Assembly (NCBI GenBank): GCA_026770705.1
Contig: JANJGN010000008.1
Coordinates: forward strand, 18,662,001-18,726,000
Direction: 5' to 3'
Length of the DNA: 64,000 nt
DNA from: Isurus oxyrinchus
Taxonomy: Eukaryota
Shown here: one piece after another, positions 1 through 23,800 of the stretch
Numbering within the stretch: position 1 is the stretch's first letter
Layout: each line of letters starts with the position of its first letter
Position numbers and translations under genes: made by a program
Notes under the pieces: generated by a model
The model's input: only the letters and a program-made list of their open reading frames with translations
Databases searched by the model: none
What the model was told of the DNA's origin: nothing

Positions 1-515
1 CTTGCCTTAGGGCATAGCAAGTTCTAGAGCACAAGTTGTTAACACTATTGCGAAATATTGTCAGGGCCCATAGCCTTTGCAGTGTCTAGTGCCTTCAGCT
101 GTTTCTTGATACCGTGTGGAGTGAATTGAATTGGCTGAAGATTGCATCTGTGATGAAGGGCTCCTCCAGAGGAGGCCGAATTGGATCATCCACTAGGCAT
201 TTATGGCTGAAGATTGTCGAAAATGCTTCAGCTTTATCATTTGCACTGATGTGCTGGGCTCCACTGTCATTGAGGATAAGGATACTTGTGGAGCCTCCTC
301 CTCCAGTGAGTTGTTTAATTGTCCACCACCAGTCATGACTAGATGTGGCAGGGCTACAGAGCTTCAGTCTGATCCGTCAGTTGTGGAATCGCTTAGCTCT
401 GCCTATTATTTGCTGCTTATGCCATTTGTCACGCAGCTAGTCCTGTGTTGTAGCATCACCAGGTTGACACCTAATTGTTAAGTATGCCTGGTGCTGTTCC
501 TAGCATGTACTCTTC
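1..515 (-). mobile_element. LINE fragment (CR1/L2-group family 'A', ORF2 region)
   Basis: Homologous to 29900-30280 (opposite strand), 32270-32800 and 50830-51350. Confidence 0.75.
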
Positions 516-559
516 ATTATTGTGGGATTCTGAATGACTTGGTTGGTTTTCACATGCAA

Positions 560-1930
560 TGTGAATGACTGTTAGTGTTGCAAGGCCTTAAGGCCAACTC
601 AGACATGCATAACTATAAACCGGACAAAAGAACTGGAATAGTTAACCTTAACAAGTGTGACTATATCTGCAAAATGAATGCCATTCTTAATGATGGGCCC
701 AAATTCGTGTCCAATGCCCCTGCCACTCAGCATAACTCTACAGCCTTGCTTGAAAGCAAGCTAAAAAAGCACTTGTTGGATGTGAGGAGGAGCAACAAGT
801 TGCAGGGTGATGTACATGATAGGATTCATCCTCACAGTTCACTGTGTCCATGTACATATGGGCTGCTGAAGACACAGAAAAGTGATGTCCCTTTGCACTC
901 AATCTTATCTATAACTGGTTCTCCACATTATGAATTGGACAATTGGCTGGGTGAGTTGCTACAGCCAGTTTTGAGTAATTTTTCTACATACACGGTGAAG
1001 GACTCCTTTGCTTTTGCAAAGACCATCCAGGACCTGTATATTGACAGCAATGCTGTGTCCATATGCTGCTTTGACATTCCTGGCCTATTCACCAATGTTC
1101 CACTTCAAGAGGCCATAGATATTTGCATTGTAGCACTTTATCATGGTGATCTAGATGCGTCACCATTGCATGAATCAGTATTCATTGAACTTATGAACTC
1201 AGCAACTAGCACAGTTGAGTTCAGTTTTAACAACATCATGTATGCTTAAATAGATGGTGTTGCCACGGCACTTCCTTTTGGTTCAGCTCTTGCAAACATC
1301 TTTACTGGGTTCCACGTGAAATGTGTCTTTGAGGGAATGACTCCTACCCTGGCATATATCCCATATAGGAAAATATAGTGTTTGCTATATTTGAACTTGC
1401 TGCTGCATGTGAGAATTTCCTTACATACCTTAGTGGGCTCCATCCTGCGCTCAAATTCATCTTTGAAAAGGAGCAGTCAAGTGAGCTCCCCTTCCTTGAT
1501 GTGTTAGTTGAGAAAACTGGCAGGGGGCTCTCTACCATGGTCTACCATGAGCCTACCTTCACTGGTCAATAAACTCATTGGGATTCCTGAAGTTCCATGT
1601 GCTGTAAGATTGGCCTTATTGGCAACATTGTAAATAGGGCCTGAGCCATTTGCTCAAAGTGCAAACTTTATGCTGATTTAAGGTGCATCAAAGTTATCCT
1701 ACAGCATAATGGCTATCCAGATCAGATCATTGCCAGCTGTATTTCAGGCAAACATGAATGGGCCGAAGGCCGTCATTTTCGGTCCTGAAAAGTGCCCAGT
1801 CTACCTCAGATTACCCTTTGGCCTTCATCACAATCTCCATAAGGTTGCCAACCTGTGGTAACTGAACGTGTTGCCCCTCCCTCCTGTCAATCACCTGTGA
1901 TGTACTGTGGGGCCTTCAACCTGCGAGCTC
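560..1930 (+). mobile_element. Decayed Penelope-like element, reverse transcriptase
   Basis: PLE RT motifs KPDK.TGIV, YGLLKTQKSDVPL.SILS, VKDSFAF, FDIPGLFTNVPL, FSFNNIMY..IDGVA, LPFLDVLV. Contains stops and frameshifts. Confidence 0.85.
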
Positions 1931-2209
1931 TTAGCATGGGCAATCCGGAGGGTGGGGGGGGGGGGGTGGAGTTTTCCGACGACAGATTGGGTCTAGGTGC
2001 AGGCATTTCTAAATGTCTCTGTAATGAAGTTTTACTGTTTTTTTTAGCAAAACCTGTCTGCTCCATCAAGTCATCACACACCCATTCCATCCTCTTCATG
2101 GTCATTGCCTAAGGAATTTTATGAGACTAGATAAATGTTAATGTTAATAATCAACACTACTAACCCTTAGTACAATCACTAGCTCTAATGCACAGAGAAT
2201 TTTCAGCCC

Positions 2210-2775
2210 CCAGTATCCTTTGATTCCCTTGTTAGCCAAGAATTTATCTACCTCTGCCTTCAATTATTCAATAACCCTGACTCTACCACTTTTTTGGGAA
2301 GAGAGTTCCACAGACCCATGACACTCTGAGAGAAAAGGTTTCTCCTCATCTCCGTCTTAAATGGGAGGCCGCTTACTTTTAAACTGCGTCACCTGGTTCT
2401 GGTCTCTTCCGCAAGGAGAAAGTCCTTTCAGCATCCACTCTGTCAAACTGTCTCAGGAACTTGTTTCAATAAGATTGTCTCTCATTCTTCTAAACTCCTG
2501 TGGATACAAGCCCAACCTTGGCTTGGCCTAAATAGCCAAGTGGTTATAGTACTGGGTTTGTAACCCCAAGATCAAGAGTTCAAATCTCACAATGGCAAAC
2601 TATGAAACAATGTAGCTTCATCTGAAACAGATGGAAACAGGTTTGTACTCGAAAGAGTTACAAGCCCAACCTTTCCTCATAAGATAACCCCCTTTTCACA
2701 GGAACCAATCTGGTGAACCTTCCTCTGAACTGCTTCTAATGCAATTATGTCCTTTCTTATTTAAGGAGACCAAAA
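2210..2775 (-). mobile_element. CR1-type LINE 3' fragment
   Basis: Reverse-complement homology to 39570-39990 and 44515-44930 (…MRRNFFSQRVVNLWNSLP-type C-terminus). Confidence 0.8.
2520..2658 (+). mobile_element. Short tRNA-derived SINE with 15-bp TSD
   Basis: A box TAGCCAAGTGG and B box GTTCAAATC. Flanked by direct repeats TACAAGCCCAACCTT (2505-2519 and 2659-2673). Confidence 0.75.
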
Positions 2776-2894
2776 TTCATGCTGCCACTAACTCTGCCTC
2801 CTTCCACCTCTATAATGTTGCCCAACTTTGCTCAGATCTCAGCTCAACTGCTTCTGGAAGCTGCATTCATGCATTTGTTACTTTCAGACTCAAT

Positions 2895-5800
2895 AGGCAG
2901 AATTTGTCCATCCCGTCCACGGCTGGTTTCGTGGTGGCCGGGAGCGGAGAATCCAGCGGCAGGCAAAAAGTCGCAAATCCGCCGTTGTAAAAACAACGCG
3001 CAATTTTCCTGATGGTGGGTTTATGGCAAGCTGATTATCCCACCGACTAGTGCTGTGAACGCCATTTGCATTAATTAACATCTCATTAATGCTCATTAAA
3101 ACAGCTGCTCGTAGGAATCTTCCTAGGCCTTCCAATCTTGCCAGTGGGAAATTATGTCAGCCTCAAATCCATTTGAAAAGGGGTGGCGTCCCCAGCTCGC
3201 TGGTAACTTCGAGGTGAGTGGAACATACGTAACCCACCAGCCATAGCGCTGTGCTGGTCTTGTTGTGATGAATGCCACTCTGCTGGGGCTGTAGGGTTGG
3301 ACTGGTCTTGCTCTTTGTGCTTTCATTGTCCAGAGGAACGCCACTGTGCTGTGGTACTCATGCAGGCCTCCGCTTTCAGAAACTAGCACTTCAACCGGAG
3401 TTGGGCTATGAGGTGAGGGTGGGGTTGAGGAACATGAGCGGGGCAATGGGTAGGAAAGACTGCGGAATGGCAGTGATGAGGAAGGGCAAACACGAGAGTG
3501 TAATTTATCGTGTCGCAATCTAACTTCTTGTTGCCACAAGAGTGAGCAGAAATCTGCTTAGTGATGAGAGCCACTGAAAGCCAATGGTTTCATTGTTGCT
3601 GTTAAATGGGTTCCTCAGAACTCAGTGGCTTCACATCACAGTCTCTGCATCTCAATAGTAACACACAGGAATGTAGAATTTGGGATTGCAGGCAATAGTG
3701 AGGGTGACACTGCTGTATCACACATGGTATTCCATCAATTAAGTCCTGTCACATATTCACCAGATGTGACACTCCTAACGGGGCAAAGGGCATCCACTCG
3801 TTGACCATGAGCAACTGATTGGTCATTAATATTCCACACCAGAGATTGGAGCACAGAGTTAGGTTGGGTCACTCATCTCACTGACACTTTAGCATTCCAT
3901 GCAGGGCTCAAGATGTTACATATCTGTGACGCCATCTTGGTCACCTCGATGTGTGTGCTAGTGTCTCAGGGACAAGGTGGCATCAGCCACCATGCAAGTA
4001 GGGCAGAAAAAACTATGGACCTTTAGAGTTTCCAAACATGACATCTTCTGAACTTCAAATTCTTGCCCCTTGAATCATTAATGTCTTCAATGTTTCCTTT
4101 CAGAAAGAAGGCAAAAGCACATATGGATCCAAGGCTCAAAGCTGCTTTTGTCAGGGTTCAAATGCAATAGAAGGGTTGAAGGAGGGAGAGGCAACTCTGT
4201 GCCCAGCCCCAGCAGGAGGGACATGGTCAAGCAGAGTCACAGCACGAACAGGAGGTCAGGATGGGAGGCCCAGACAATGGGAGCAACTTGCCAGATCTAG
4301 GATTTATTGTAGAAGAGTCTCCTATTTACAAATGAGTGAGAGGCAATGCTGTGCACGTCTGTGCTTGTCCTGAGCTCTGGTGCATCACATATGCCACATT
4401 CTTCGTGAAGACCTGACTCCACGTGGAGTTGGAGGGTATCCCCTGCCAGTGGCTTTGAAGGTGACTGGAGCACTCAATTTCTTGGCCTCTGGCTCTTTCC
4501 GAGGATCAACAGGTGACCTGTGCGACATCTCTTAGTCCACAACACACTGATTCATAAAGAACGTCACAGATGCCCTTGGACACTGGCTTCCAGTCACTAA
4601 AGCAGCCTTCTGTCATCATACTCTGCCTCCTACAACTAAGCCAATTTTGAATCCACCTTTTCAAATTACCCTGTATCCCATGTGCATTTGCCTTCTTTAT
4701 AAGTCTCCCAAGTGGGACCTTGTCAAAGGCTTTGCTGAAATCCATATAAACCACATCAACTGCATTACCCTCATCTACACACCTGGTCACCTCCTCAAAA
4801 AGTTCAATCAAATTTGTTAGGCATGACCTCCCTCTGACAAAGCCATGCTGACTATCCCTGGTCAAACCTTGCCTCTCCAATTGGAGATAGATACTCTCCT
4901 TCAGAAATGTCTCCAATAGTTTCCCTACTACTGACATGAGACTCACTGGCCTGGAGTTCCCTGGCTTATCTCAACAACCTTCCTAAATAGTGGAAGCATA
5001 TTAGCAGTTCTCCAGTCCACTGGCACCGCCCCCGTGGTCAGAGAGGAATTAAAAATTTTGGTCAGAGCCCCTGCAATCTCCTCCTTTGCTTCCCTCAGCA
5101 GCCTGGGACACAAATCATCTGGACCTGGAGATTTGTCCACTTTTAAGCCTACCAACACCTCCAATACCTTGTCACTCCCTATATCAATTTGCTTAAGAAC
5201 CTCACAGTCTCTGTCCCCGAATTTGATACCTTCATCCTCATTCTCTTGGGTGAAGACGGATGTGACGTATTCATTCAACACTCTAGCAATGTCCTCTGGC
5301 TCCACCCATAGATTGTCCCCTTGGTCCCTAATGGGCCCTACTCTTTCCCTAGTTATCCTCTTCCCATTGATATACTTATAGAGTATCTTGGGATTTTCCC
5401 TACTTTTACCAGCCAGAGCTTTCTCATATCCCCTCTTTGCTCTCCTAATTGCTTTCTTAAGCTCCACTCTGCTCTTTCTGTACTCCACTAATGCCTCCGG
5501 TGATTTGCTTCAATTGTACCTGCTAAAAGCCTCTCTTTTCCTTATCATCATAACCTGAATATCTCTGGTCATGGTTCTCTGGGCTTGTTACTCCTTCCTA
5601 TCACCCTAGAGGGAACATGTTGAGCCTGTACCCTCCCCATTTCCATTTTGAACACTCCACACTGTTCCTCCGTAGGTTTCACCAGAAGTAACTGTTCCCA
5701 GTCTACCTTGGCCAGATCCTGCCTTATTTTACTAAAATCCACTCTCCCCCAATCCAAAACATATTTTTGCAACTTGTCGATTTCTTTGTCCATATCAAAC

Positions 5801-8760
5801 TTAAACTGTACCATGTTGTGGTCACTATCGCTAAAATGATCCCCCACCGCCATCTCAGCCACCTGTCAGGCTTCATCCCTCAAAGTTAAGTCCAGCAATG
5901 CACCGTCCCTTGTTGGATCCTCCACATATTGACATAATAAGTTCTCCTGTAAACATTTCAAGAAATCCACTCTATCCAAGCCCTTAACACTATGTCTATC
6001 CCAATTAATGTTGGGAAAGTTGAAATCACCTCATATAATTACCCTATTGTTATTTTACATATCTCCACAAATTGTGCCCATATTTGCTCCTCAATTTCCT
6101 ACTGACTATCTGAGGGTCAATAATAAACACCTACCAACGTGGCTGCCCCTTTTTTATTCCTAAACTCTACCCACAAAGCTTTATTTGATGCCTACTCCAA
6201 GATATCATCTCTCCTTACTGCAGTAACGACTCTTTAACTAATAATGCAATCCCTCTTCCTCTTTTATCCCCTCCATTGTCTCGTCTGAAGATTCTATATC
6301 CAGGAATGTTGAGCTGCCAATCCTGCCACTCCCTCAACCATGTCTCAGTGATGGCTACTATATCACAATTCCACGTGTCAATCCTCACCCTTAACTCATC
6401 TGTTTTACCTGTAATACTCCTGGCATTAAAGTAGAGGCCATCCAGCCTTGCCTAACTCCCTTGAAGCTTAATTAATTGCGCTCCCTCTGACTTGATTGTT
6501 TTACTGTATTATGATGTGTCCCTGTTCTGCTAACATTCTGTGTCCCCTCCCCCTGCTGAATTAGGTTAAACTCTTCCCAACAGCATTAGCAAACCCGCCC
6601 GCTCTGGTTCAGATGTAGACCATCCCGCTTGTACAGGTCCCACCTTCCCCAGAAACAGTCCCAGTGATCCAGGGATCTAAAACCCTCCCTCCTGCACCAA
6701 CTCTTAAGCCACGTATTCATCTGTGCTATTCTATTTCTGAGTTCGCTAGCACGCGGCACTGGGAGTAACCCAGAGATTACAACCCGAGAGGCCTTGCTTT
6801 TTAGTCTACTGCCTAACTCCCTGAATTCTTGATGCAAGACCTCATCCCCCTCTCTACCTATGTCATTGGTACCAACATGTACCATGACCTCTACTTTATC
6901 ACCCTCCCCCTTCAGGATGCCCTGCAGCCACTCAGTGACTTCCCGGACCCTGGCACCAGGGAGGCAACATACCATCCTGGAGTCACGTTGATGGCCACAG
7001 TAGCACCTTTCTGTTCCCCTGACTATAGAATCCCCCATTACTATTGCTTTTCATTTCTTCCTCCCCTCCTGTACAGACAGGTTGCTTGTGGTGCCAGAAG
7101 CTTGGCTCTGTCTGCACTCCCTGGAGAAATCAGCACCCTCATCAGCCTCCAAAATGGAATACCAATTTGCAAGCGGGACCCCAGGGACTGCTGAACTACC
7201 TGCCTATTTCTCTTGGACTGCCTGGTGGTCACCCATTCCCTTCCTTCCTTAAGTCCCTTCATCTGCGGTGTGACCACCTCTCTAAACGTACTATCCACGA
7301 TGCTCTCAGACTTGCAGATGCTCCACAGTGTCCCCAGTGCTTGTTCCAGCTCTGAAACCTGAGCTTTCAGGAGCTGCAGCTGGACACACTTCCTGCACAC
7401 ATGCTGGTCCCGGGCACTGGAAATGTCCCCAGCTTCCTGCATGGAGCACAAGGAGCACAGCACGGCTTCTGCCATGACTTATCCCTTTAAATTAAACCTT
7501 TTAATCAATTACTCTAGGGCCCCTCTTTCCTGATCCTCATTACTGTAGAATATACAAACTGTAAACCACAAAAAGACCTTAAGCTATAAGCGATTAAAGT
7601 AGTAAATACCTTACCCACTACTTACCAGTGATTCCTTTCCCTTGTAGCCTCTACTGCTGCAGCTCGCTCTGAAGATTTAAGAAGTTGAATAGCAAGGAAA
7701 AAATGCAAAGAGCACCTCATCCCCCATGCACCAAATTCCTGCTTTGCACCAAACTGCCAATACCCACTCTGGCTGTGCCCCACTCAGGATGGAATGGCTT
7801 TGAGGAATCCATCTGCTGGTGCCTAGAAATAGGAAATAGAGTTTCAGTTAATGAGAATGTGCTAGATAAGAGTGCATGTGGCTCAATGTGAACGTCAGGA
7901 TTTGGTGAAGTGATGGAGCTGTGATCCGTATTAGGTTGGTAGGAGAGGCTGATCTCCCATCCCACACAGGAGTGATCCATGTCCTGCCCAGCCAGCTTGG
8001 CTGCAGCCTCCTCAAACTCACTGAGGGCAATGATGTCAGCCATCCCTCCTCTGGTCAGCGCTCTCTCCAGCCTGTTTTGTGTGCCCGTTTGGCCTGTCTG
8101 AAGAAGAAAGAAAGGCAGGTGATGAGAAGGGATGGGGCAGAGGTTGGGTGAGATGCATGTCCACTGTGTGTGGTGAGCCCTCTCCAGAAGGGCCAGAGGA
8201 TGGAGTGTGAGCAGCACGATAGATGGGATGGTGGTGAAGTGAACGTCTCGGTGAGAGAATATACGTTGATATGTGTCCCTGCTCATGGTTGCGTGAGATC
8301 CCTGAAGAGAGTAGCCGTTTCAGTGCACGATGCCATGATCAGAGTTTGATATTGGGGTAGTTGAAGGATGACTTACCCTGGCAGAGTGGATGAGATCATT
8401 CTCTTTCTGCACTGGGTGGTATTTCGGGCACTGTTGCCAGCCGCACTGGCCTGTTCCACAAAGGCCTCCCAGGCCAGAGAGATGAGGCTGCTGTGTTTCA
8501 TGCTGCCACCCCTGGGACAGAGCCTTTGCTTCTGCACCTCTCTGACGAAGACCTGGAGGGCCTGGTGGGTGAAGCAGGGTGCTGCCTTCTTCTTCAGGCT
8601 CTCGGCCTTCCTCTTCTGGCTGGGTAGGTATGATATCTTACATTTGTAATTCCACATTTAAAAATCACGTCACAAATTTCAGTTGAAATGTATGTAATGT
8701 ATGTAACCATGTATGGTTGATAATTCATTTTATTTGGAGGTGCCATCATTCGAATGAGAT
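2895..8760. mobile_element. Decayed PIF/Harbinger DNA transposon (interrupted by CR1)
   Basis: TIR-like start ggcagaattt at ~2895. HARBI1-like N-terminus on + at ~4280-4575 (MSERQCCARL, LPVALKVTGALNFLASGSF). Myb/SANT-like ORF on - at ~8373-8610 (AAPCFTHQALQVFVREV…LAWEAF…RNTTQCRKR). Right end approximate. Confidence 0.7.
4575..7690 (-). mobile_element. CR1 LINE: ORF1 (zinc finger + SGNH esterase) and ORF2 (APE + N-terminal RT), 3'-truncated
   Basis: ORF1 motifs CSLCSM…HVCRKCVQL, GDSIVRG, CCLPGARV, VHVGTND, DGLHLN. ORF2 motifs SDHNMV, KSPGPDD, QHGFVRGRSCLTNL, VYMDFSKAFDKVP. Confidence 0.92.
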
Positions 8761-9106
8761 GCTAATCTGATGCATGCTTCACAGGAGGCCCACCTAGGTT
8801 AGTGTGAGACTAGTCCCACTCAAAGTTATTTGGCACTTCTTACTGCTAACCTTTACCTCTTAAAGGGGAGTGTATTCTGACTGCTGCAGGTGCTGGACTT
8901 GGATGGGAGAGACTTTTTTCAGCAGGGTCTGACACTGATGAGCCCAGGAGACCCGCCAATGAGGTCACTCCCTTGCCCAACAGCAGTCTACACGGCTAAA
9001 GCAGCTGGGCTTCCCATATGGCAATGGCCTCCCCCTGCTACAGATAAAATAGCGATGTGTACATGATGAGGCCCTTATGAATGGGCCACTTGAGGGCCTC
9101 ATTGGC

Positions 9107-11342: not shown

Positions 11343-11794
11343 TTGGCCCAATTCCGCAAACGGAACCCCCCCCCCCCCCCAATAAAATTTGAGACAGATT
11401 GGCAATGGGTGGGTAGGCAGTAGGTGGGACACCCATTGGATTTTATGAGCCCTCCTGCCTTCAAACCTGCCGGCAGAGGAGAGTATGTTGCTGTGGGATA
11501 AATGTGGATTATATATGGTCCATCGTATGTGAGTATGTATAACTTTTATTTCGCTTATCAGTGGGAGAGGTGGTATCATGACTGAAGAATGTGATTGCAC
11601 GTTTTATATTTCCCAATGAGAATGTGGAAATAATTTGTTAAGATGTTTTACCTCATTTCTTTATTTACACAGTCTGAGTGATAAACATATTGAAGAAATG
11701 TGTCTCAGTTACACTTCGTGTTTTTTTTGGTGCTATATATAATAACTGTATCTAAATGTATATTTCTCACAGGCAAAGAGACTGAATCTGTGAA

Positions 11795-11882
11795 ATGAGT
11801 CTACGAATTTTCTGCAGCAAATTGTCAGCTGGCTCGATGTTCAGTTTCTTTGTGTTTCTATTTCCGCCTGTTTTCACACAAA
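11795..11882 (+). CDS. Leader/signal-peptide exon (MSLRIFCSKLSAGSMFSFFVFLFPPVFTQ)
   Basis: ATG at 11795, hydrophobic core, phase-1 donor A|GTAAGT at 11883. An upstream acceptor (tatttctcacag, ending 11772) implies a further 5'UTR exon. Confidence 0.75.
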
Positions 11883-14800
11883 GTAAGTGTTTTATTTCCA
11901 TCAGTCACACTTATCTTACTTTACGCTATCATAGTGTTTAATGAATTTACATATCTACTATTGTGAAAAGAAATAATGTCTTTATTATTTTGTTCCTGCT
12001 CCTTTTAACAGGACGTGTAAGTTCACTTTTCCGACTCCAGCAATGGAACAATTGAATCAAATGAAAACTGTGAACATATTTCTCATTGCTCTTAACTCAG
12101 TTTCCTGATCTATCTCTGAATTTGCCTGGTCATCTCTACATATACTCTTGCATATAACAAACTTCTATCATATAACTTGCTGTCACATTTCAAAGTATCA
12201 CAATCACTCCGTGGAAGTCTTTCTGGAATCCATATATTTGATATTTAATCATTCAATGGTCAACCGGTTGCATATGTTTCAGAATTCAGGTTTCCAATAT
12301 ATAATAATATTCAAATGTGAATTTATGGTTCTAAAATGAAGAGCAGTTGAAAATAGTTTATTGTTTGAGCCTATAGAACTTATTGTAGCTACGCAAAATG
12401 ATGGAAATACTCTTTCCGTCAGAACTGACGATAAGTCATTGACCTGAAAAGTTAAAACGGGTGAGATTTTAATTCAATTAAAGCTCATTCGCTAAAACAG
12501 AGTTAAAATTGGGCCCATTGCCTCTCTTTCTCTCTCCACAGATGCCGTTGGAGTTGCTGAGTGTTTCCAGCAGATTGTATTTTATCTCAGATTTCCAGCA
12601 TCCCCAACCATATTTGTTTTTTTTACACGATACTGTTCAACTAAAGTTTAACTTGGAACAAGTTCAATAATTTTACACAATTTGGTTTTGCAATCAGAGC
12701 CATTGTGATTCTAGTATTTGTGATGTGAAAATGTAACCAATATATTGGTTTTAGTGAGGATTTTACTATTTCACATTTACCCTTTAAAATAAAGGCTGAT
12801 GATAATTTGAAGGTGGAAATATATTCCAGTGAATGACAAACTATTGACTGAACGATGGGACCAATGTCACCAGGGGCCATTTGGAAATATTCAAATGCAT
12901 TAAGTACATTTTTCACCATCACAGCCATGGATGTCACCTGCACTGATAAGACACAGCACCTGAAATACACTGTCAGTCAGATTCCTAGAACTGGTTTATC
13001 CCCGTCACATTTCAGACACAGTGAAGAGCGGACGCAAGAAACACTTGAACTCGTCCCAATTTGGGAAGCCCCATTACAAGATAAACAGGATGGAGACTCA
13101 CATAACTGTATCCTTCCCCAGTTTCTCTCCCATGAGCTCCTGTCCATCCTGATAATGTGCCCTGTAGACCAGGAGTCACAAGGAGTTCTGGAACCTTTAT
13201 ATTCTGTCTAAGGATTTAACCACATCCCCCTTTTTAATTTTGATTGTTTTTTGTATTTGTGTTGTATATTCAGCTAACTCTCATAATCAATACACTGAAT
13301 ATAATAGGATTGTTCTGTTTTTCTCTGTAATAGTGACTGAAATGAAGACAATATTATGAGCTGAATATAAAAATTATATTCTTAAATTAACAGTGCAATT
13401 ACTAAATCTGCCTCCATATGTATACACTTGACCCCTCCCTTCAGCAGCATACACTCACCCGATCTCAAATCTGTCCTTGTTCCCAGTTACATTTCATTCT
13501 TTGTTTCATCCAACGCATTAACAACAAGTATTTTGTCTTCCTTTCAGGTTTTGAGGAATGCAACAATTTCCTTTATTCTGCTTTTAACACCGGCTTTAGT
13601 CTTTAATGCTATTATTACCATGGTTTTTGCCTTGTGTTCTGTGATATATTTGCCATTTAATCTCTCCAGACCTCTAACCTATCCCTGACCTTCTATTTTG
13701 CTCCACCTGCAACCCCCGACATTTTCAACAGCGTGAAACTCATCACATTTCTATCTAATCACAGTTCTGAAGAAGAACCATATTTGACTCAAAGGGCAGA
13801 ATCATCCCAAATTTGCACTAAGTGTGGTACCGGGTGGAAGAAAGGATGTTTTACCCACCAGCCACAATGATAAATTTTCAAACTGTATCGTAACATTCCC
13901 AGCATGTCCAGCCTCATTAATAATTCAATCCCGGCAAACACGCTGGGTTGGTGGTGGGGTGGCCTCTGATTCGCCTCCCCCACCGCCACCTGAGGCCTTC
14001 AGAAATCCGGGCAACGTATTTAAAAGCCAAAACAAAAACAGAATTACCTGGAAAAACTCAGCAGGTCTGGCAGCATCGGCGGAGAAGAAAAGAGTTGACG
14101 TTTCGAGTCCTCATGACCCTTCGACAGAACTTGAGTTCGAGTCCAAGAAAGAGTTGAAATATAAGCTGGTTTAAGGTGTGTGTGTGGGGGGGCGGAGAGA
14201 GAGAGAGAGAGAGGTGCTTGTGTAGACAAACAAGCAGTGATAGAAGCAGATTATCAAAAGATGTCAGTGACAATGGTACAATAGAACACATAGGTGTTAA
14301 AGTTAAAATTGGTGATATTATCTAAACGAATGTGCTAATTAAGAATGGATGGTAGGGCACTCAAGGTACAGCTCTAGTGGGGGTGGGGGGAGCATAAAAG
14401 ATTTTAAAATATTTAAAAATAATGGAAATAGGTGGGAAAAGAAAAATCTATAAAATTTATAGGGGAAAAAAAAAGGGGAAAAAAGGGGGAAACAGAAAGG
14501 GGGTGGGGATGGGGGAGGGAGCTCACGACCTAAAGTTATTGAATTCAATATTCAGACCGGAAGACTGTAAGGTGCCTAGTCGGAAGATGAGGTGTTGTTC
14601 CTCCAGTTTGCGTTGGGCTTCACTGGAACAATGCAGTAAGCCAAGGACAGACATGTGGGCAAGAGAGCAGGTTGGAGTGTTAAAATGGCAAGCGACAGGG
14701 AGGTTTGGGTCATTCTTGCGGACAGACCGCAGGTGTTCTGCAAAGCGGTCGCCCAGTTTACGTTTGGTCTCTCCAATGTAGAGGAGACCACATTGGGAGC

Positions 14801-17800
14801 AACGAATGCAGTAGACTAAGTTGGGGGAAATGCAAGTGAAATGCTGCTTCACTTGAAAGGAGTGTTTGGGCCCTTGGACGGTGAGGAGAGAGGAAGTGAA
14901 GGGGCAGGTGTTACATCTTTTGCGTGGGCATGGGGTGGTGCCATAGGAGGGGGTTGAGGAGTAGGGGGTGATGGAGGAGTGGACCAGGGCGTCCCGGAGG
15001 GAGCGATCCCTACGGAATGCCGATAAGGGGGGTGAAGGGAAGATGTGTTTGGTGGTGGCATCATGCTGGAGTTGGCGGAAATGGCGGAGGATGATCCTTT
15101 GAATGCGGAGGCTGGTGGGGCGATAAGCTTATATTTCAACTCTTTCTTGGACTCGAAATCAAGTTCTGTCGAAGGGTCATGAGGACTCGAAACGTCAACT
15201 CTTTTCTTCTCTGCCGATGCTGCCAGACCTGCTGAGTTTTTCCAGGTAATTCTGTTTTTGTTTTGGATTTCCAGCATCCGCAGTTTTCTTTGTTTTTATA
15301 TTTAAAAGCCACCCTGGCAAAGAGCTAGTGTCCTTCAAGGGATAGCAGCTGCTGGGGCCTGATGGCTGCCAAAGGGAGGAAACATGCTGCTCCCAAATTT
15401 AGAAAAGCCCCCCTCAAGCACCTACTGGAGGCAGTGGAAGCCCCGCTGTGATGTCCTCTACCCTCGCTCTGGGCAAAGAGCAGCAAGAACGGTCACCAAT
15501 CCAGCATGGGAGGCGTGGCAGTGGTGTTCAGCGCCAATACCCTGCAAAAGAGGACAGCTACCCAATGCCAAAAGAGGATGAATGATCGCCTCTCTTCTGC
15601 TAGGGTGAGTCACTCTTCTCATCTCACAAACCCATCACAAATCCACAAGGATCTCATTCATTGCCAGATCAAGGGACTTCACCATTCACCCTCTCACACA
15701 TGCATTCATTTACCCTGTGGATCATGTTCTTAGCCCACTCATGACACCAATCACCACACACACACACACACACTCACACACACACATGCCAGGCATGCTT
15801 GTTATCTGGCCTGACAGGCATCCTGCTTACATGCATTCATTAGGACAAACCGGCAAACAACAAATAGGAGAGATTGCAGTCTGGGGGAGGAGTGCCTGAA
15901 ATCATGGTCCTCACGGGCTTTGAAAATACAGTCATCCAGCTGGCCAGTGATGATCTGGACTGTTCCTGTTCTGATGGTGAAGTTGGTGTTGCTTTACCAA
16001 GTGAGGATCCAGCAGTACAGCATCTATCAGACAACCATGCTGTGAGGCAGTCCCCCTGATCCACAGTCCCCTGCCATGCACTAATTTTCTCTCCTTGCTT
16101 TCGCTGGTGCATCTGGGAAGTGAGGGGGTCAACGAACGAGGTCCTCGACTCAATCCTTGAAGAAACCTTGGGAGAAGAATCTGATGACACCCTAATTGAA
16201 GGCCCATTGCAGCGCTCACGCTCTCCCTCCACCACTGCAGAAACCCACACCTCGGTGGGGCCTAGTTCTAGAGTAGTCTCGGGATCACAACCTGGTGTGT
16301 AACCTCATACTGTCAGACCCACAGCAGGCAGCGGCAGGGACTTGCCAGGTTACTGGCACTCGGAGGACTGCTGGAAGCCAGAAATTCTGAGTCAGATGAG
16401 GATCCTCTGGGCTTGGCCATGTCACAGTTGCTGGAGCTACAAAGGTCATCTCAGGAACATCTCGCGAGGCGACCATGTTCTCGACTTTGATCAGGTCCTC
16501 ATAAAAGATAGGCAACACCTGCAAGAAACCACAAAGGCGCACCCCCCAAACCCCCCCGCAACACCCCCCCCCCCCCCGGTCTACAAACAGGAGCTGCACG
16601 TCATAATTCAGGCCGTGTACCTGGCGGAAGAAATACATCGCCAGGGCATACCATCTCGGAGGGGACTCTACGTCAAGATATCGATGCAGGGCCAGAAGCC
16701 GGAAAGTCACCATCTGGGTGCGTGGGCACACCAACTCCTGAACGCCCTCCCTAAGCGAGAGACTCAGAACCTCAGCAGCAGCCCAGTGCAGCCTCTTGTC
16801 GCGAGGACCACCCCAATGCCCAGCCAGCGCAGAACCAATCCCTATCACCTCCTCTGCAAGAGGCCCAGGAAAGGGTCCACGAAGATAGAATACAGTTGGC
16901 CAGACAGGGGGCAGCCCCTACACATTCCTCTCCCAAAGTGCCGTCAGCAACCCGTTAATCTTAACTGGACAGCCTGTGGCAGCGTACAGAAGTCGAAATG
17001 CATCCCAAACCTGAATGTTCGCAGAGTCCCGAATAAATATTTGTGACCCACCCTGTCGAACGCCTTCTCCTGGTCAAGAGAAAGGAAGGCGTTTGACAGA
17101 GCAGTCCTCTGGGAAGAGTGGATAATGTCCCAGACCAGATGGATGTTGTCAAAGATAGTGCGTCCCGAGTCCATGTAGGACTGGTCAGAGTGGATCATGT
17201 GGTCCAGCACAGTGCCAAGGCATAAAGACATTGCCCTGGCAACGATTTTGTAATCCGTGCTGAGGAGGGGGACTGGGCGCCAGTTCCTGAGGTGGCAGAG
17301 ATCCCGCTTCTTAGGCAGCAGGACAATCACAGCCCTGCGCCATGGGAGGGGCATCTCCCTGGTCACGATACTCTCCCCCAGGACCCTCGCATTGCTAGCA
17401 CTGCACAGTCATTATTCAGGAATGATGCTAAATGTCTGTAGATGCAGCTGCCTCTGGGCACTGCTAGCTAACCCAGGCGAGGCAAGGGAGGGCAGAGTAG
17501 GGTACAGGTCTCCTCTCCCTTAAAGTTCAGTTTCTCACAGCCCTCCCTGCTCGGACAACCCGACAACCAGACAGACAAAAGACAGTTTTTTACTTTCCCA
17601 GGCACCGACCTCCTGCAGCAAATGTTCTCCCTATCCAGCTGGAGTTGGATCCTCTCCCCTCTGGCCCTCGCCAAAATCCCACTCCCATGCTCTTTGAGCC
17701 TTGCTAGGCCTTACAAGGCCCTGCCTGTAGTAGCAGGTTGTCATACCAGCAGCAACAGCAGCAGCCTTTTGGCAGCGGTTTTCTTGACCCAGTTGAGGAC

Positions 17801-20800
17801 TAGAAGGAAATCCCACAGCAGCAGGAACAGCCACAGGAAATCACACAGCAACAGGAACAGCCACAGGAAAACAGCAGCAGGAACAGCCACAGGAAAACAG
17901 CAGCCGGAACAGCCACAGGAAATCTCACAGCAGCAGGAACAGCCACAGGAAATCCCACAGCAGCAGGAACAGCCACAGGAAATCACACAGCAACAAGAAC
18001 AGCCACAGAAAAACAGCAGCAGGAACAGCCACAGGAAAACAGCAGCCGGAACAGCCACAGGAAATCCCACAGCAACAGGAACAGCCACAGGGCAACAGCA
18101 GCCGGAACAGCCACAGGAAATCCCACAGCAGCAGGAACAGCCACAGGAAATCCCACAGCAGCAGGAACAGCCACAGGAAAACAGCAGCAGGAACAGCCAC
18201 AGGCAGCACCAAGCACAACCACAGCGACAGCCATATCTCAGCTGTAATGAGCTACAGCTGAGACCAACCAGGAAGCAGAGGCTGGGCACGGGTGTGAATC
18301 ACTTGTACATAATGTTCACGACTGTAAATAAACTCCCAAGAATCTCTCCTTGCCTATGGCTCCTTGTTCTGATGAACAGTGTCCGTGTCACTCTGATGTG
18401 AAACCTTGGTTCCTGCACAAGATAAAGGCAGGTGTCTCATCCAGGACTTCTTCCCTGTGCTTATGCAACCTTCCCAGCACACTGATGGTGCGCTTTCACC
18501 ATCACTGTAAACAATAGTCATGCTTGCACCTTACTGGGGCTTATCATTGCTGCCAGAATGTCCTGGGCCGGTGGCGCAGAGTACCATCATTTTCTCTGTG
18601 TGCTCTCAGCACCTTTGAGGTGTGGCTGGCCCACCATCTCGTCAGCATCTGTGTCTGGTGACAGTGTGGTCCTGGAGGCTTCTACTCATGAAGGATGCCA
18701 TAGGAACAGGAGAAGTTAAAGTTTCCCTAGAGCATCCTCATGACATGATCCTGTTCACAGAGCGCAAGAGGGTTGCCATCAACCAGACAGGAGCCAGACA
18801 TTCACATAAGCTATGTGAGGATCTACGGAGTGTCTGCACCGCATGTCATCATCATCCTTCTGGAATGTAGGGACTATGGGCATCCGCTGCCTCTCCATGA
18901 CAGGAGCCTTATCACAGAGGTTATGTGCACTGTCATCAGCCAGGCAGGAGTCAAATGTTCACAGATGCAAGGTGAGGATCTATGGAGCCCCTTCAGGGCA
19001 AGTCAACAACATTCTCCATAAATCTAGCAGCTATGCCTGCCTCACCTGGACAACACGATAGCCTCATCCCTGTCATCCTCCCCTTCTAGCACCTCATCAA
19101 ACTCATCCCTGTTGACGTACTCTTCAATGGAAGAGACAATCATCTTCTCCTCAGGCAGTTCCTCCCCAGGTTGCAGCGCCAGGTTGTGAAGGGCGCAGCA
19201 ATGACGATGATGCGTGAATCCTCTGGAGAGTATATATTGCAGAGTCCAGGCACCACAACCTCACTTTCAACATCCTGATGGTCTGCTCCACCAAGGTGCG
19301 AGATGCAGCATGAGCCTCATTATACCGTCACTCTGCTGTAATCTGAGGCTGCCTCACAGGCGTCATCAGACACGTCCCCTGTGGGTAACCCTTCTCCCCG
19401 AGGAGCCAATCCTGCAGTCTGTGGACCCTGGAAGATGTCAGGGGCCTGAGACCTGCTGAGGCTATAGGTGTTGTGGACACTCCCTGACAATTGCCTGCAG
19501 ACCTGTAGGATGCATTTGTGGTGGTTGCACACCAGCTGAACATTCAGCAAGTGGAAGTCCTTGCAGTTGACAAAGATGTCCACTTGTTGCCATAGAGACC
19601 TGAGTACCCGTCAGTGCTGTCAATGGCAACATGCACCTGTGGAAAACCTGAGACCTGTACAAATCCCAGTGCTCTTTCATCCTGGCTTTCCTGATCTGGA
19701 GCTCATTGCACAAAGCTGTGTGTCTTAATGAATATAGCATCCATGGCATGTTGCATCTTATGTGTTACGAGAGTTTCTGACTCAACCACCCTTACAGACA
19801 CTGAGTTCCAGGCTCACTCCACCCTCTGATGGAAAATGTTTCTCTTCAACTCCCCTCTTATCCTTCTACCTCTTACATTAAATCCCTGCCCCCAATCTAT
19901 GCCTCCTGGATGCCATTGTATGTGGAGGCTTGTGAGATCCCACAGAGATCACCTGAGGACCCCAGAAAGGAGCCACTGTCTTAAAAATTGAGTGCTTCAG
20001 TCACTTTCTAGGCCACTGGCAGTGGATGCCCTCCATGTCTCCATGGCAACAAATCCTGCAGTCACTGGCAGATGTGACTTATCAGTTCCCTGGTCACACG
20101 CAGTCTTCGGCGACACTTTTTCTCACTCATCTGCAGGAAGGACAAGTATCGTCTGTAGACCCTGGGTCTATTTGGATGCCAATCAGCGAGGCTCACTGTG
20201 GCTCATCAGCGCCATGCACAGGACCCCCAGCTGCCTCTTCCTGAGGGTAATCCCCCCCCCCCACTGCCCACCCAGGTACCTCCATCACTCTCTTTTCTCC
20301 TTCGTCCCTGCTCTCTGTGCATCACGAGGTATACAGATAGTTCACCGGACTCCATGCTCCTGCCAGATGAAAGAGAGAGACGTGTGGGTTAGCATGGGTG
20401 TACTAAGAACCTCGCTTGGTTAAGTCTAAAGGCCCCTTAACACGTATCGGAGACTGCTGGCCACCACTTGGATGACCAGAATTCAGTGCATTGCATGGCT
20501 GCCCGAAACACCACCTACGTCCACCCTACTCCACGAGACCAATTGGCGGCCGCTTTGCACACTGGACTGCATGGTGTGCTCTCAGCTCAGGTGCAGGCAT
20601 TCTCCTAACCTGCACTGCAAGGCTGCACTGTTAACTTGAACCATGGGGGAGGCTGGTCCAAAACTGAATGAAGACATTGCAAGGGGCTGTGAGCACCTCC
20701 ACTAGTTACTGCTCCATGACCAGCTTTTGCAAGGAGATTGTATGACTTTCCCAGTCATCCAGTGTTCTGTAGTCCACTAAATTGTCATTTGTTTGCAGTT

Positions 20801-23800
20801 TGTTCCCGAGTGGTGAAAATTTCAGGAGCATTTGGAGCATTTGGTGGCCCTTTCATGCCTCTGCATTGCTTCACTGAGAAGAGAAGCTAGAGGCCTGACT
20901 CCAAGCATGTCAATGTGGCTGCATCTGAACTGTCTCAGCTGTGGAGGAACGGTCACTTCATACAATGTTTCCCTAATGTGTGGCCATCTCTCTCCACCTC
21001 TGCCCCGCTCCCTGCATGTACTTCTACACCACCATCAGACTGTGCTGCTTTCCCACCCTCCACCAACAGCAGCACAGCCCTTGCTCCAGAACCGCACAGT
21101 CAGCCAGTGGGGAAATAGCGAAATGCCTGTGCCCTCGCCTGAATGTGTGGCGCTTGTTTCTTCAAGTCAAGTGGGCGACCCTGGCGAGCGCTGTGTAACG
21201 TTAGTGCACACTCGCCCCCGAGTTCCTTTGGAAATTCAGCTCACCGGGTGCACCATCTTTTACATGTTGCCGTGAAACACGTCGGCGTATAATCTCACCG
21301 ACATTCCCAGATCATCCAGCACGGGGGGATGATTCTATTGGGCAGGGCTTATAATAATATGCAGATGTATGAAAATGACATTCCTGATGTGCGGCAGCAG
21401 GAAACGTGGTCACCCATTGACGGGTGGAGGGGACGTTCGCAAAGTTGGTTTCACAACGGAGTGGAAGTGAATTTTGGCCTTCTCACCATATTGTTCACTC
21501 ACGCCCACCATAGCGCCCGACACCAACGGGGATGGCAAATTCCAGCCAAAATATTAAGTATTTTTCTCTCTTCACAGATGCTGCCAGACCTGCTGAATAA
21601 TCCCAGCATTTTCTGTTTTAATTTCAAATTTTCATCATCTGCAGTATTCTGCTTTTATTATGAATTATTACAGACATTGAATTAAGAACTTGGATTAAGA
21701 ATTGAGGTTTACCATTAAAATAATTACATTTCCTCTTTCTAACAGGTAACACAAATCATATTTATTTTTTGGATGAGGGAGGTGATATCTCACTAAAAGG
21801 ACCAGACAATCCTGGAGATGGTCCTGTTGTCTGGAAATGGAAACCACACTCAGGGCAAGAAATCCAACAGCTGGTTACTTTTCGGAGAGACAGATCATGG
21901 AGGTGGAGTGCAAAATGGAGCAAACAATTTACAACCAGTGAGTTTTTCCAGAGGATAATAAAAGATCGGAATACCATTGATCTGAGAATTCGCAATCCCA
22001 TAATTCAATTTGCTGGATTGTTCACCTTGACTCAGACACAGCCAAGAAATGAAATCCTGAAACGTTATGAAATATTTGGGATCAAAGGTGAGTGGAACAA
22101 AATGTAGAAAAAAAACTATGATTTTCCATGAATAATATCAGGTGTAATGATTAGAAATTGCTGGGATCACATGGTTCAGGATTTTGAATTTTGGGTCAGG
22201 ACGCCGACGTTTGGGTCATATGGGGTTTACAATCCTGCCCCTGTTTGGGCACAGTCACCCAGCAGTGATTTTCCTTCAATTGGTCAATTAGAGGGCAGGC
22301 TGGCCTGATATTTGAGGATGGTGGCCAGACTTTCAAAGCTGAGGACCAATGGGAGGCTCAGATATAACAGCAGTCTGCAGCTCTGGTAAGAGAGAGCGGG
22401 TGCATTCATCTTGAGGTGTCCCTTCTCCAAACTTCCTAATCTATTAAATTAAAATTTTGTCACAGCAATCGGATCACAATTGTGGAAGTGGAACCCTCTA
22501 CAGTGTGGCCTATGGCTGCAGTTGTGGCCGTGCAAGTGGGGAGGACCTGAAAGCCAGTCTTGAGTATTTATCCCCCTGCTCAGACACCGGGTGGTAGCCA
22601 GCAGGTAGCTGGCCTTGTTCCCCCATGCATCAGGAGGCCCACAGACTGACTGGAAAATTTCAGTCTGAGTTTGCTGATTGTCCTTGATAGGCCTTTAACT
22701 CCTCCCACTTTGGGTAGTCTTCCTGACTCCCAAGCCGCCTCCAGGAAAATGGCCCAGGGATGGGATGGTTCCAGGAAACAGGGCTGGGGGTGGGGGTGTG
22801 GCATAAAAATTACCCCAGCAGCTTTATGTCAGCCAGTGCGATGCACATTCCTCATTATAATTATCGGGGGAAAGATTCTGTTCATTGTTTCTATTGAAAT
22901 GGTCAACATGAGTAAAAGAATATTGACAATTTAACCAGGAACAACAAACTGAGGAATCTACGCCATAGATACCATTATGGCCTATACATTGACAGACTCT
23001 CTGTAAGATGTACTGAATTCTGTTACCAAATAGCTCCCTTGTGCTAATAACTCTCATCATTGTGAGATAGAGGGCCAAATCTGAGAATCAAAGGGCAGAA
23101 TTTTGCCTGTCCCCAGGAGGCAGGAATGGTAGCTTTGTGCCCAGAATTTCAGACGGATCTGTGGCAGATTATCTCCCTGACCATGTTCTGCCATGGGGGA
23201 GTTTTACTGCCATGAGGGAGTTTTACTGATGATGGGACCAGAATCAGGCAGGTTGCGGGAACCCCATAGGAATATGTAAATACCCTATTAAACTCCATTT
23301 TACCAGGCCACCAGCATTCTGCCATCAGCGGATCAACTCCCTGCTGTGTGGAGAAACCACCAGCTAAGTGAAGACAGCTTCTCAGTGACAGCCTGGGGAG
23401 GAGGGGTTTTAGTATTAAAAAGGGGGTCACGGCCCAGTTGGCACTGCGGACCCTGCTGGGCTACCAGTCCTCTGACTGGGGGATTCATGCACATTGATCT
23501 TTGAAGTTGGTGGGACATATTGAGAGCAGTTCACAAAGCATATCCGACACTGGATTTCATTTATAAAGTTACTGCCGGAATTTACATTCCCCAGTGGTTC
23601 ATAACCTGGAGGTAACCCAGAAGATGTGCTCGGCAACCCGCTACCCGCTCCCCCGTCCCCCCTCTTCCCCCCCAACCACCTCCAGCTGTCCCCAGACAAG
23701 GACTACACAGGAGTTGCCCAGGAAGTTTAAGCTTCTATTGGATAACAACCCTGTACCTAGAACCATCCGAAACTTGATTTATATCGGAGAATTTGATTGG

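Follow-up and report, generated by a model that had tools for sequence, protein, structure and literature searches.

Upstream of an intact receptor gene in Isurus oxyrinchus, positions 1817-2894 of the 64-kb stretch of DNA analysed here (64,000 nucleotides, hereafter the window) form an inverted copy of 39449-40478, which lie in the D5-D6 intron of that gene. We conclude that the segment is very probably a non-coding remnant left by duplication of a D5-D6 intron in this receptor family. The reading draws on the homology itself, a nested LINE junction shared by both copies, later insertions in the upstream copy, an empty insertion site in a white-shark paralogue and missing 5' exons.

An inverted copy of a receptor-gene intron

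Pooled identity between the inverted copy and the intron is 564/681 (82.8%), spread homogeneously over five blocks (chi-square p 0.90; Table 1). Self-BLAST of the window aligned 2079-2208 with the reverse complement of 40447-40316 (81%, E 9e-27), 2208-2498 with 39986-39700 reversed (84%, E 4e-82) and 2664-2894 with 39679-39449 reversed (81%, E 3e-58). The two copies share the exact position of the LINE-in-LINE junction, with host/insert at 39568/39569 in the intron and 2775/2774 upstream. Missing from the upstream copy are the 329 bp at 39987-40315, a deletion that cuts block B1 at 2207/2208 and shows short C-rich microhomology at the join. Private to it are a 139-bp SINE, set between perfect 15-bp target duplications (2505-2519/2659-2673), and a 225-bp solo LTR, whose target site is represented in the intron by one CACC and whose sequence aligns to an LTR at 9107-9250 (100/133; 0/300 shuffles). 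The preliminary description had paired 2085-2208 with ~40316-40445 in inverted orientation, and 2210-2893 with ~39450-39990 across a common chimeric junction, and had estimated a gap of ~325 bp in the upstream copy; these matches were borne out, the second being interrupted by the 139-bp insertion.

Homology runs on past ~2080, where 1817-1853 matches 40478-~40442 on the left of the solo-LTR-like insertion (34/38 identical in local alignment, a score reached by 0/300 shuffles), and searching the whole of 1-2078 with 40448-40520 returned the same place (0/100 shuffles). Because homology resumes left of the LTR, the edge near 2080 marks a later insertion and not a breakpoint. Left of 1817, no homology was detected in 400-700 (113/300 shuffles scored as well), and the repeat at 1..507, which we take to be of the LINE class, stops further leftward tracing. 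Rightward, blastn, nhmmer and local alignment found no homology over 2895-11790, with a planted 60-bp piece recovered in 20/20 trials at 17% divergence and 17/20 at 25%; likewise, block C has no continuation anywhere in 1-11760.

Identity of 82% is not in itself diagnostic, because 5 of the 19 other dispersed-repeat pairs of at least 200 bp in the window also reach 80%. The block 40316-40447 has exactly two copies within the window (nhmmer E 1.4e-18, third copy absent). A third copy of the inserted LINE (44525-45043; about 70% to block B1 by nhmmer) is ~72% identical to both members of the pair (276/383, 264/369), as against 84% within the pair (307/367), and its 5' flank differs from theirs. 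The segmental duplication proposed in the preliminary description is thus supported by the shared nested junction, the collinear flank and the uniform divergence.

The names given to the surrounding elements are provisional. We presume from protein motifs that the inserted LINE is CR1 and the host LINE L2; Pfam gave 0 hits for five fragments, a homologue search gave none, and the Atlas returned unnamed clusters only. The element at 520..1816 is presumably Penelope-like by its motifs, a label that stays unconfirmed because Pfam gives no hit for its ORFs 569-1246 and 1249-1476. We likewise take the old element at 2895..8420 to be DNA-transposon-like from its termini; it is split by a long RT-bearing LINE (~4550-7480; Pfam RVT_1 and GDSL-esterase hits), and its far end was not located. 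The boxes of the SINE were assigned against the A-box/B-box consensus, and ARAGORN reported no tRNA in the window.

Table 1. Coordinates of the features at 1-8420, of the receptor gene and of the source region in its intron.
Feature	Position	Strand	Details
Dispersed LINE-type repeat	1..507	.	Runs off left window edge; matches 32277-32777, 30268-29900, 50840-51339
Degenerate retroelement	520..1816 (start approximate)	+	Abuts left end of traceable homology; basis: sequence and ORFs
Block A0	1817..1853	-	40478-~40442; intron copy beyond solo LTR; 31/36 in block count
Solo LTR-like insertion	1854..2078	+	225 bp; TGT...ACA ends; 4-bp target repeat AACC/CACC
Block A	2079..2207	-	40446-40316; flank with two window copies only; 105/128
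Block B1	2208..2519	-	39986-~39684; inserted LINE piece; 245/292 over 2208-2504
tRNA-type SINE	2520..2658	+	139 bp; upstream copy only; A-box-like 2533, B-box-like 2578
Block B2	2659..2774	-	~39684-39569; 5'-truncated LINE end to shared junction; 88/107 over 2670-2776
Block C	2775..2894	+	39568-39449; host LINE fragment, right homology end; 95/118 over 2777-2894
Old element	2895..8420 (end approximate)	.	Related to 15560-21542; nhmmer E 7.8e-11, blocks 64-73%
Receptor gene	11795..59784	+	Intact; 15 coding exons, 999 aa, 8 Ig domains, two ITIM-type motifs
Leader exon	11795-11882	+
D1 exon	21746-22087	+
D2 exon	26499-26768	+
D3 exon	28677-29015	+
D4 exon	29094-29363	+
D5 exon	37635-37979	+
Source region	39449..40478	+	Host LINE left 39449-39568; inserted LINE 39569-~40104; host right ~40105-40290; flank to 40478
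D6 exon	40883-41155	+
D7 exon	43545-43883	+
D8 exon	43962-44231	+
TM exon	48554-48658	+
Tail exons	53646-53744, 54388-54465, 55857-55913, 59528-59580, 59713-59784	+

The receptor gene

All internal junctions of the receptor gene are AG/GT and its single stop lies at the end. Pfam recognises Ig domains in six of the eight, with no hit for D1 and D5, which also have no cysteines; WxC is present in the F strand of D4 and D8 and absent from D2 and D6. The ITIM-type motifs of the tail are IHYGSI and VIYAQV. The D3-D4 and D7-D8 introns are identical at 74/78 positions; judging from the sequences, gene conversion is likely in this family and can blur ages. The 64-kb window contains no neighbouring genes.

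Other readings of the segment

Transposons account for about three quarters of the matched bases, and the old element begins exactly at the right homology boundary (2895), as might be expected of a dispersed composite repeat (DNA transposon, Helitron or LTR cargo) unrelated to gene duplication; copy number, moreover, was measured within the window only. Such an origin nevertheless seems improbable to us: the host LINE of the intron continues past 39449 (39112-39380 matches another copy), the left end was created by later insertions and is not an element terminus, no terminal inverted repeat spans the block, and in a white-shark paralogue the host fragment precedes a D6-type exon.

It is still harder to credit that the copy, which lies 9-10 kb upstream of the gene, has been retained as an enhancer or silencer. 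It does sit upstream of the promoter, and block A is low-copy in the window, but conservation of this block (82%) does not exceed that of the LINE blocks (80-84%; p 0.90), and an LTR has split it. Rfam gave no match for 1800-4500, no structured RNA or tRNA was found in the segment (Rfam over 1800-4500, ARAGORN on the window), and block A has zero family-protein matches as evidence of a coding role. The relic itself most likely does nothing.

The preliminary description inferred a sister gene or pseudogene on the minus strand to the left; its strongest reading, in which the segment belongs to a sister gene that is intact and expressed, perhaps an activating partner, is very unlikely to hold. 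Lysine-type members do occur beside ITIM-type members in other species, and homology is still open toward the left window edge. Because such a gene would be on the minus strand, however, its leader and D1-D5 must sit to the right of 2894, where 8.9 kb are free as against the 27.7 kb that they span in the intact gene. With 108 family proteins as queries, tblastn returned 913 hits, 0 of them on the minus strand, and the 6 outside exons are all inside introns of the receptor gene. Each of the 15 exons matches only itself or its module partner in the window, and neither strand of the window holds an exon homologue outside the receptor gene; in the control for this search, copies of D5 and the leader planted at 17-25% divergence were found again in 20/20 trials. 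A TM-lysine profile run against 2130 six-frame segments found nothing (best E 0.18). Finally, the copied intron is of the D5-D6 type, whereas the three lysine-type proteins with mapped domains have four domains; one lysine-type protein in the tree has two modules. Within the window, the claim of an intact gene fails for exons that resemble the family, and by the minus-strand order only D6-D8, TM and tail could lie leftward, as a broken remnant, for which the sequence left of the window is a plausible place.

An assembly artefact, or independent insertions resembling each other by chance in a region rich in repeats, is equally implausible, as a collapsed or duplicated assembly would give near 100% identity and not 83% with private insertions, and independent insertions would not share a target base, a truncation point and a flanking block.

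Origin and age of the relic

The relic of a duplicated intron can be placed in the history of the family by the white-shark model LOC121281410 (P0077), which comprises D6, D7 and a partial D8 and has neither leader nor D1-D5 nor TM. The first 'exon' of this model is a translation of the same host LINE (aa 21-78 = 40123-40296, E 3e-13); it reads straight through the insertion site and is then spliced to a D6 that is 93% identical to that of the window gene. The host LINE thus travels with the D5-D6 intron of the family. LOC121281410 is ruled out as an orthologue of the upstream copy, as it is without the insert and retains the part that is deleted upstream. Divergence is ~8% (4-15%) for orthologous white-shark intron DNA, ~25% (18-35%) for the host LINE of LOC121281410 and 17% for the pair, in a calibration that uses intron-derived peptides of automatic gene models (53-54 codons) and in which the ranges (17% as against 18-35% and 4-15%) overlap. 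The relic is probably older than the white-shark split. White and basking shark have several paralogous models each.

We infer the following order of events. A host LINE fragment would have settled in the D5-D6 intron, and the gene would then have duplicated, with the site still empty in the LOC121281410 lineage. The lineage of the window gene would next have received a 5'-truncated second LINE within the host LINE, and the region would have been duplicated again, ~17% divergence ago. The copy would have ended up inverted, broken within the host LINE at 2894 and severed from its 5' exons, before losing 329 bp and gaining the solo LTR, further retroelements and the SINE. For the inversion we tentatively favour a break of an upstream tandem paralogue within its D5-D6 intron; a duplicate in head-to-head orientation whose 5' half was lost is a less probable second choice, and a short inverted duplication devoid of exons from the outset is a third, somewhat less probable again. 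On either of the first two routes, a degenerate D6-D8 would be expected on the minus strand a few kb beyond the left window edge, behind two retroelements. The homology ends 405 ancestral bases before the D6 exon would be reached, and no Ig exon of a sister copy was seen in the window.

A precedent is offered by catshark CD4, next to which lie fragments of CD4 pseudogenes in reverse orientation (PMC10768021); there, too, broken paralogous pieces accompany an intact shark Ig-superfamily receptor gene. The catshark fragments are exon-bearing, highly similar and mostly downstream, whereas the relic is intron only, upstream and 17% diverged, and its gene is not CD4.

A family of shark and ray receptors

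The 108 protein records retrieved for the family all come from sharks and rays (22 species) and carry one to four modules per protein. ITIM-type members account for 45 of the 108 records, in 20 species, to which the window gene is added; members with a TM lysine and a short tail (0-45 aa) account for 23, in 14 species; and both types are present in 13 of the 22 species. The preliminary description had called for inspection of paralogue TMs for Lys/Arg or ITAMs; the lysines are there, whereas the 23 lysine-type tails are free of ITAMs and ITIMs. The two classes have closely similar ectodomains: the class label on 58 membrane-proximal modules needs 15 changes on the tree, as against a shuffled mean of 16.7, and cross-class sister pairs have SH-aLRT values of 98-99.

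Consecutive locus numbers on equal-sized contigs (for example chiPu_0019109/110/111 on a 257,200-bp contig, LOC119965406/407, LOC127570086-090) hint at physical clustering of the two classes. They stand in for coordinates as a proxy, and gene adjacency rests on them. Most records are named 'uncharacterized' or 'hypothetical', with a few automatic names such as 'obscurin-like' and 'CD276 antigen homolog', and no description of the family was found in the literature searched (mostly open-access journals). The receptor cluster and paired family suggested in the preliminary description gain support from proteins of other sharks and rays, but not from the segment itself; lysine-type members number 0/11 among the lamniform records. 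On balance we consider it rather likely that this is a clustered paired family with no name in the papers searched.

Comparison with known receptors

CD4 and LAG-3 have a four-domain module in common with the family. The best eight Foldseek matches to a model of one relative (P0035) are to LAG-3 and CD4, with 13-17% identity and TM-scores by query of 0.26-0.34, and the best PDB sequence match for the family is LAG-3. The CD4/LAG-3 ectodomain is of V-C2-V-C2 type with WxC in both C2 domains; the WxC of D4 and D8 fits this pattern, whereas its absence from D2 and D6 and the cysteine-free D1 and D5 depart from CD4 and LAG-3. The CD4 tail is defined by the LCK-binding motif Cx(C/H) (PMC10768021), which the tail of the window gene does not have, so that CD4 is ruled out; LAG-3 is ruled out by a tail without (F/Y)xxL(D/E) and encoded by five exons, compared with the single-exon tail of LAG-3. 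Unlike CD4 and LAG-3, moreover, the family is multigene and has ITIM and TM-lysine forms. Teleost G6f-like (G6fL) is described in PMC3528668 as having four Ig domains. It signals through a cytoplasmic ITAM, whereas the window gene has ITIMs and the 23 lysine-type tails have neither, and the window gene is thereby ruled out as G6f-like. G6fL ranked second and third among the Atlas feature hits (0.96), and this resemblance is a lead only, because CD4 and contactin clusters score equally (0.96-0.97).

KIR, LILR and CD300 genes are clustered, with ITIM and TM-charged forms, truncated models, pseudogenes and birth-and-death turnover, an organisation that the present family appears to share. The fish paired receptors DICP and NITR likewise combine all of these, as outlined in bioRxiv 10.1101/2021.06.11.448072; neither name occurs among the 108 family hits.

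Significance

The relic is an ordinary duplication leftover, a routine finding, yet the state of the insertion site, empty or filled, makes it a useful dated marker of the history of the cluster. One could speculate, at long odds, that it marks turnover in an undescribed shark and ray paired cluster, truly descended from the CD4/LAG-3 clan and still reading MHC or MHC-like ligands. Such a cluster would be the KIR/LILR counterpart of cartilaginous fish, its proteins stacking one to four CD4-type modules and its activating and inhibitory tails exchanged time and again under shared ectodomains. The relic is valuable mainly as a pointer to a family, apparently without a name, of paired receptors, inhibitory and activating, that are CD4/LAG-3-like in shape. 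Across sharks and rays this family shows the full anatomy of paired immune receptors together with a CD4/LAG-3-like module, and it supplies concrete candidates for leukocyte receptors, inhibitory as well as activating, in the oldest lineage whose immunity is based on MHC.

The inverted copy of the D5-D6 intron

Self-BLAST of the window confirmed an inverted copy of part of the D5-D6 intron upstream of the receptor gene, in three reverse-complement blocks of 81-84% identity (Table). The upstream copy lacks 329 bp of the intron and, as this piece includes the 3' end of the insert (a second, 5'-truncated LINE within the intron's host LINE fragment), we infer a deletion in the upstream copy. Two features had escaped the preliminary description: a SINE-like insertion, and a resumption of homology to the intron (34/38 identical; 0/300 shuffles as good) to the left of a solo-LTR-like piece, so that the left edge of the match near 2080 is the product of a later insertion. 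Left of 1817, two further retroelements occupy the window up to its edge. The LTR of a two-LTR element is related to the solo LTR, and two inverted copies of a very young short repeat flank a GIY-YIG-bearing element.

Table. Features of the window.
Feature	Position	Strand	Details
Reverse-complement block	2079-2208		= 40447-40316
Reverse-complement block	2208-2498		= 39986-39700
Reverse-complement block	2664-2894		= 39679-39449
Resumed homology	1817-1853
Solo-LTR-like piece	1854-2078		225 bp; TGT...ACA ends; 4-bp target repeat, single copy in intron
SINE-like insertion	2520-2658		139 bp; between perfect 15-bp repeats
Two-LTR element	~9105-11345	-	LTR identity 192/228; sequences resembling a primer-binding site and a polypurine tract; TTGGC target repeat; without long ORF
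Young short repeat	9642-9750, 14023-14167, 15126-15270		96-99% identical
Receptor gene	11795-59784	+	intact; 15 exons; 999 aa
Tandem low-complexity array	~17750-18260		intron 1; long Gln/Ser/Thr-rich ORFs, several frames
Intron 1 stretch	21375-21533
D1	21746-22087		no cysteines
D1-D2 intron stretch	26286-26345		followed by GT donor
D3-D4 intron	29016-29093		78 bp
D5	37635-37979		no cysteines
Segment absent upstream	39987-40315		329 bp
D7-D8 intron	43884-43961		78 bp
Third copy of inserted LINE	44525-44918
Tail exon	54388-54465		DEHAVV

The earlier reading of the match as a segmental duplication was borne out by the target base and truncation point common to both copies and by their collinear two-copy flank, which settle the case. 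The level of identity is not decisive by itself, since 5 of the 19 other repeat pairs of at least 200 bp in the window also reach 80%; within the pair (564/681) it is even across five blocks that differ in origin (p 0.90). The third copy of the inserted LINE has a different 5' flank and is 72% identical to both members of the pair, which over its span are 84% identical to each other. As to a dispersed repeat, neither common element termini nor a spanning inverted repeat was found for the matched block, and the host LINE extends in the intron past the matched part. Judged by their motifs, the repeats are presumably CR1, L2, Penelope and DNA transposon pieces; database searches returned no name for the fragments. 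The upstream copy is very probably a duplication relic.

Probable fate of a proposed duplicated paralogue

A minus-strand gene holding the relic intron, as had been proposed to lie to the left, would have its leader and D1-D5 on the right-hand side of that intron, with D6 and everything after it on the left. An intact gene of this kind is excluded: the leader and D1-D5 take up 27,654 bp of the intact receptor gene, the free space to the right of the relic is 8,876 bp, and tblastn of 108 family proteins against the window gave 913 matches, none on the minus strand. The six matches that fell outside exons all lie inside the gene's introns, and each of the 15 exons, searched in the window, matched only itself or its module partner; planted copies of D5 or the leader at 17-25% divergence were recovered in 20/20 cases. 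The resumed homology ends 405 ancestral bases before D6, and we think it somewhat more likely than not that a broken remnant (D6 onward) lies left of the window.

The white-shark model LOC121281410, whose locus number adjoins that of LOC121281409, the closest match of the window gene, comprises D6, D7 and part of D8, and lacks leader, D1-D5 and TM segment; models without 5' exons thus occur in a related shark, although the truncation could be an annotation effect. Its first predicted exon is translated host LINE, in which the insertion site is empty and read through; this exon is joined by splicing to a D6 that shares 93% identity with that of the window. The host fragment therefore belongs to the family's D5-D6 intron, and the insert arrived after that paralogue split. 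LOC121281410 was rejected as orthologue of the upstream copy. Intron-derived model peptides put the rough nucleotide distance at 8% (4-15%) for the orthologous intron DNA of white shark and at 25% (18-35%) for the host LINE of LOC121281410, compared with 17% for the upstream/intron pair; with overlapping ranges, these values fit the order host LINE, paralogue split, insert, relic duplication, species split.

We suggest that a duplicated paralogue broke within its host LINE, at 2894 and next to the start of another old element, and that the remainder persists as an inert relic. An inversion cutting an upstream tandem paralogue within the D5-D6 intron would be preferred, because one step accounts for both the orientation and the absent 5' exons; a head-to-head duplicate followed by deletion, or a short inverted duplication without exons, are alternatives that we likewise infer.

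The receptor family

The extracellular part of the receptor consists of two modules of four domains each, eight domains in all; its TM segment is uncharged, and it carries two ITIM-type motifs. Two family searches (36 and 88 matches) gave 108 distinct records, every one from sharks or rays; the nearest relatives are LOC121281409 and basking-shark models (D3 84-86%), in which the tail reads DEYA, one tail tyrosine having been lost in the window gene. This kinship makes a lamniform shark the probable source of the window. The D3-D4 and D7-D8 introns are identical at 74/78 positions and their flanking exons at 76-80%, reflecting gene conversion or splicing constraint. The D1-D2 intron stretch matches the start of basking-shark LOC144675648 at 20/20 residues and is possibly an alternative first exon, or merely slowly evolving DNA. 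The intron 1 stretch matches the predicted N-terminus of LOC121281409 at 44/53 residues; that N-terminus is probably a translated repeat rather than a true leader, and the common insertion supports orthology. D1 and D5 gave no match in a Pfam search, and the equivalent region of the family record P0035 is modelled as a confident beta-rich domain.

The eight best fold matches of a modelled four-domain member (mean pLDDT 76) were all to LAG-3 or CD4, at low identity and low TM-scores; the best PDB sequence match was also LAG-3, and the Atlas clusters contactin-2, g6f-like and CD4 scored nearly equally. The likeness is one of ectodomains: neither the tail motifs by which PMC10768021 defines CD4 and LAG-3 nor the ITAM of G6f-like (PMC3528668) is present in the window gene, which so belongs to none of the three. 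It is constructed like a DICP/NITR-type inhibitory receptor.

The suggested pairing of activating and inhibitory members is supported, as predicted signalling classes, by sequences of other elasmobranchs, independently of the relic segment. ITIM tails occur in 45/108 records and a common TM lysine motif in 23/108, whose tails of 0-45 aa contain neither ITIM nor ITAM; the counts do not represent gene frequencies, as isoforms are included, 30 models lack a TM segment and a lysine-type protein served as the second query. Both types occur in 13 of 22 species, in several with consecutive locus numbers on equal-length contigs, a proxy for clustering. In a tree built from 58 membrane-proximal modules (seven isoform-like records removed, incomplete modules left out), class required 15 changes, against 16.7 with shuffled labels; ectodomains are not sorted by signalling class, as expected of paired receptors swapping exons. 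Counting against the earlier suggestion, the 11 lamniform records include no lysine-type member (six ITIM, five without TM), and no TM-lysine exon was found in the window. Records P0001-P0004 stack up to four modules (about 15 domains), so that module number ranges from one to four across the family, and two ray records (P0095, P0096) have a TM segment that is of the inhibitory type except for an arginine, possibly a second, independent activating form.

No description of the family was found in a literature search that covered mainly open-access papers; it may be described elsewhere, e.g. with the nurse-shark 'obscurin-like' record V9NJF3. The relic segment itself is ordinary; the receptor family is the lead worth following.
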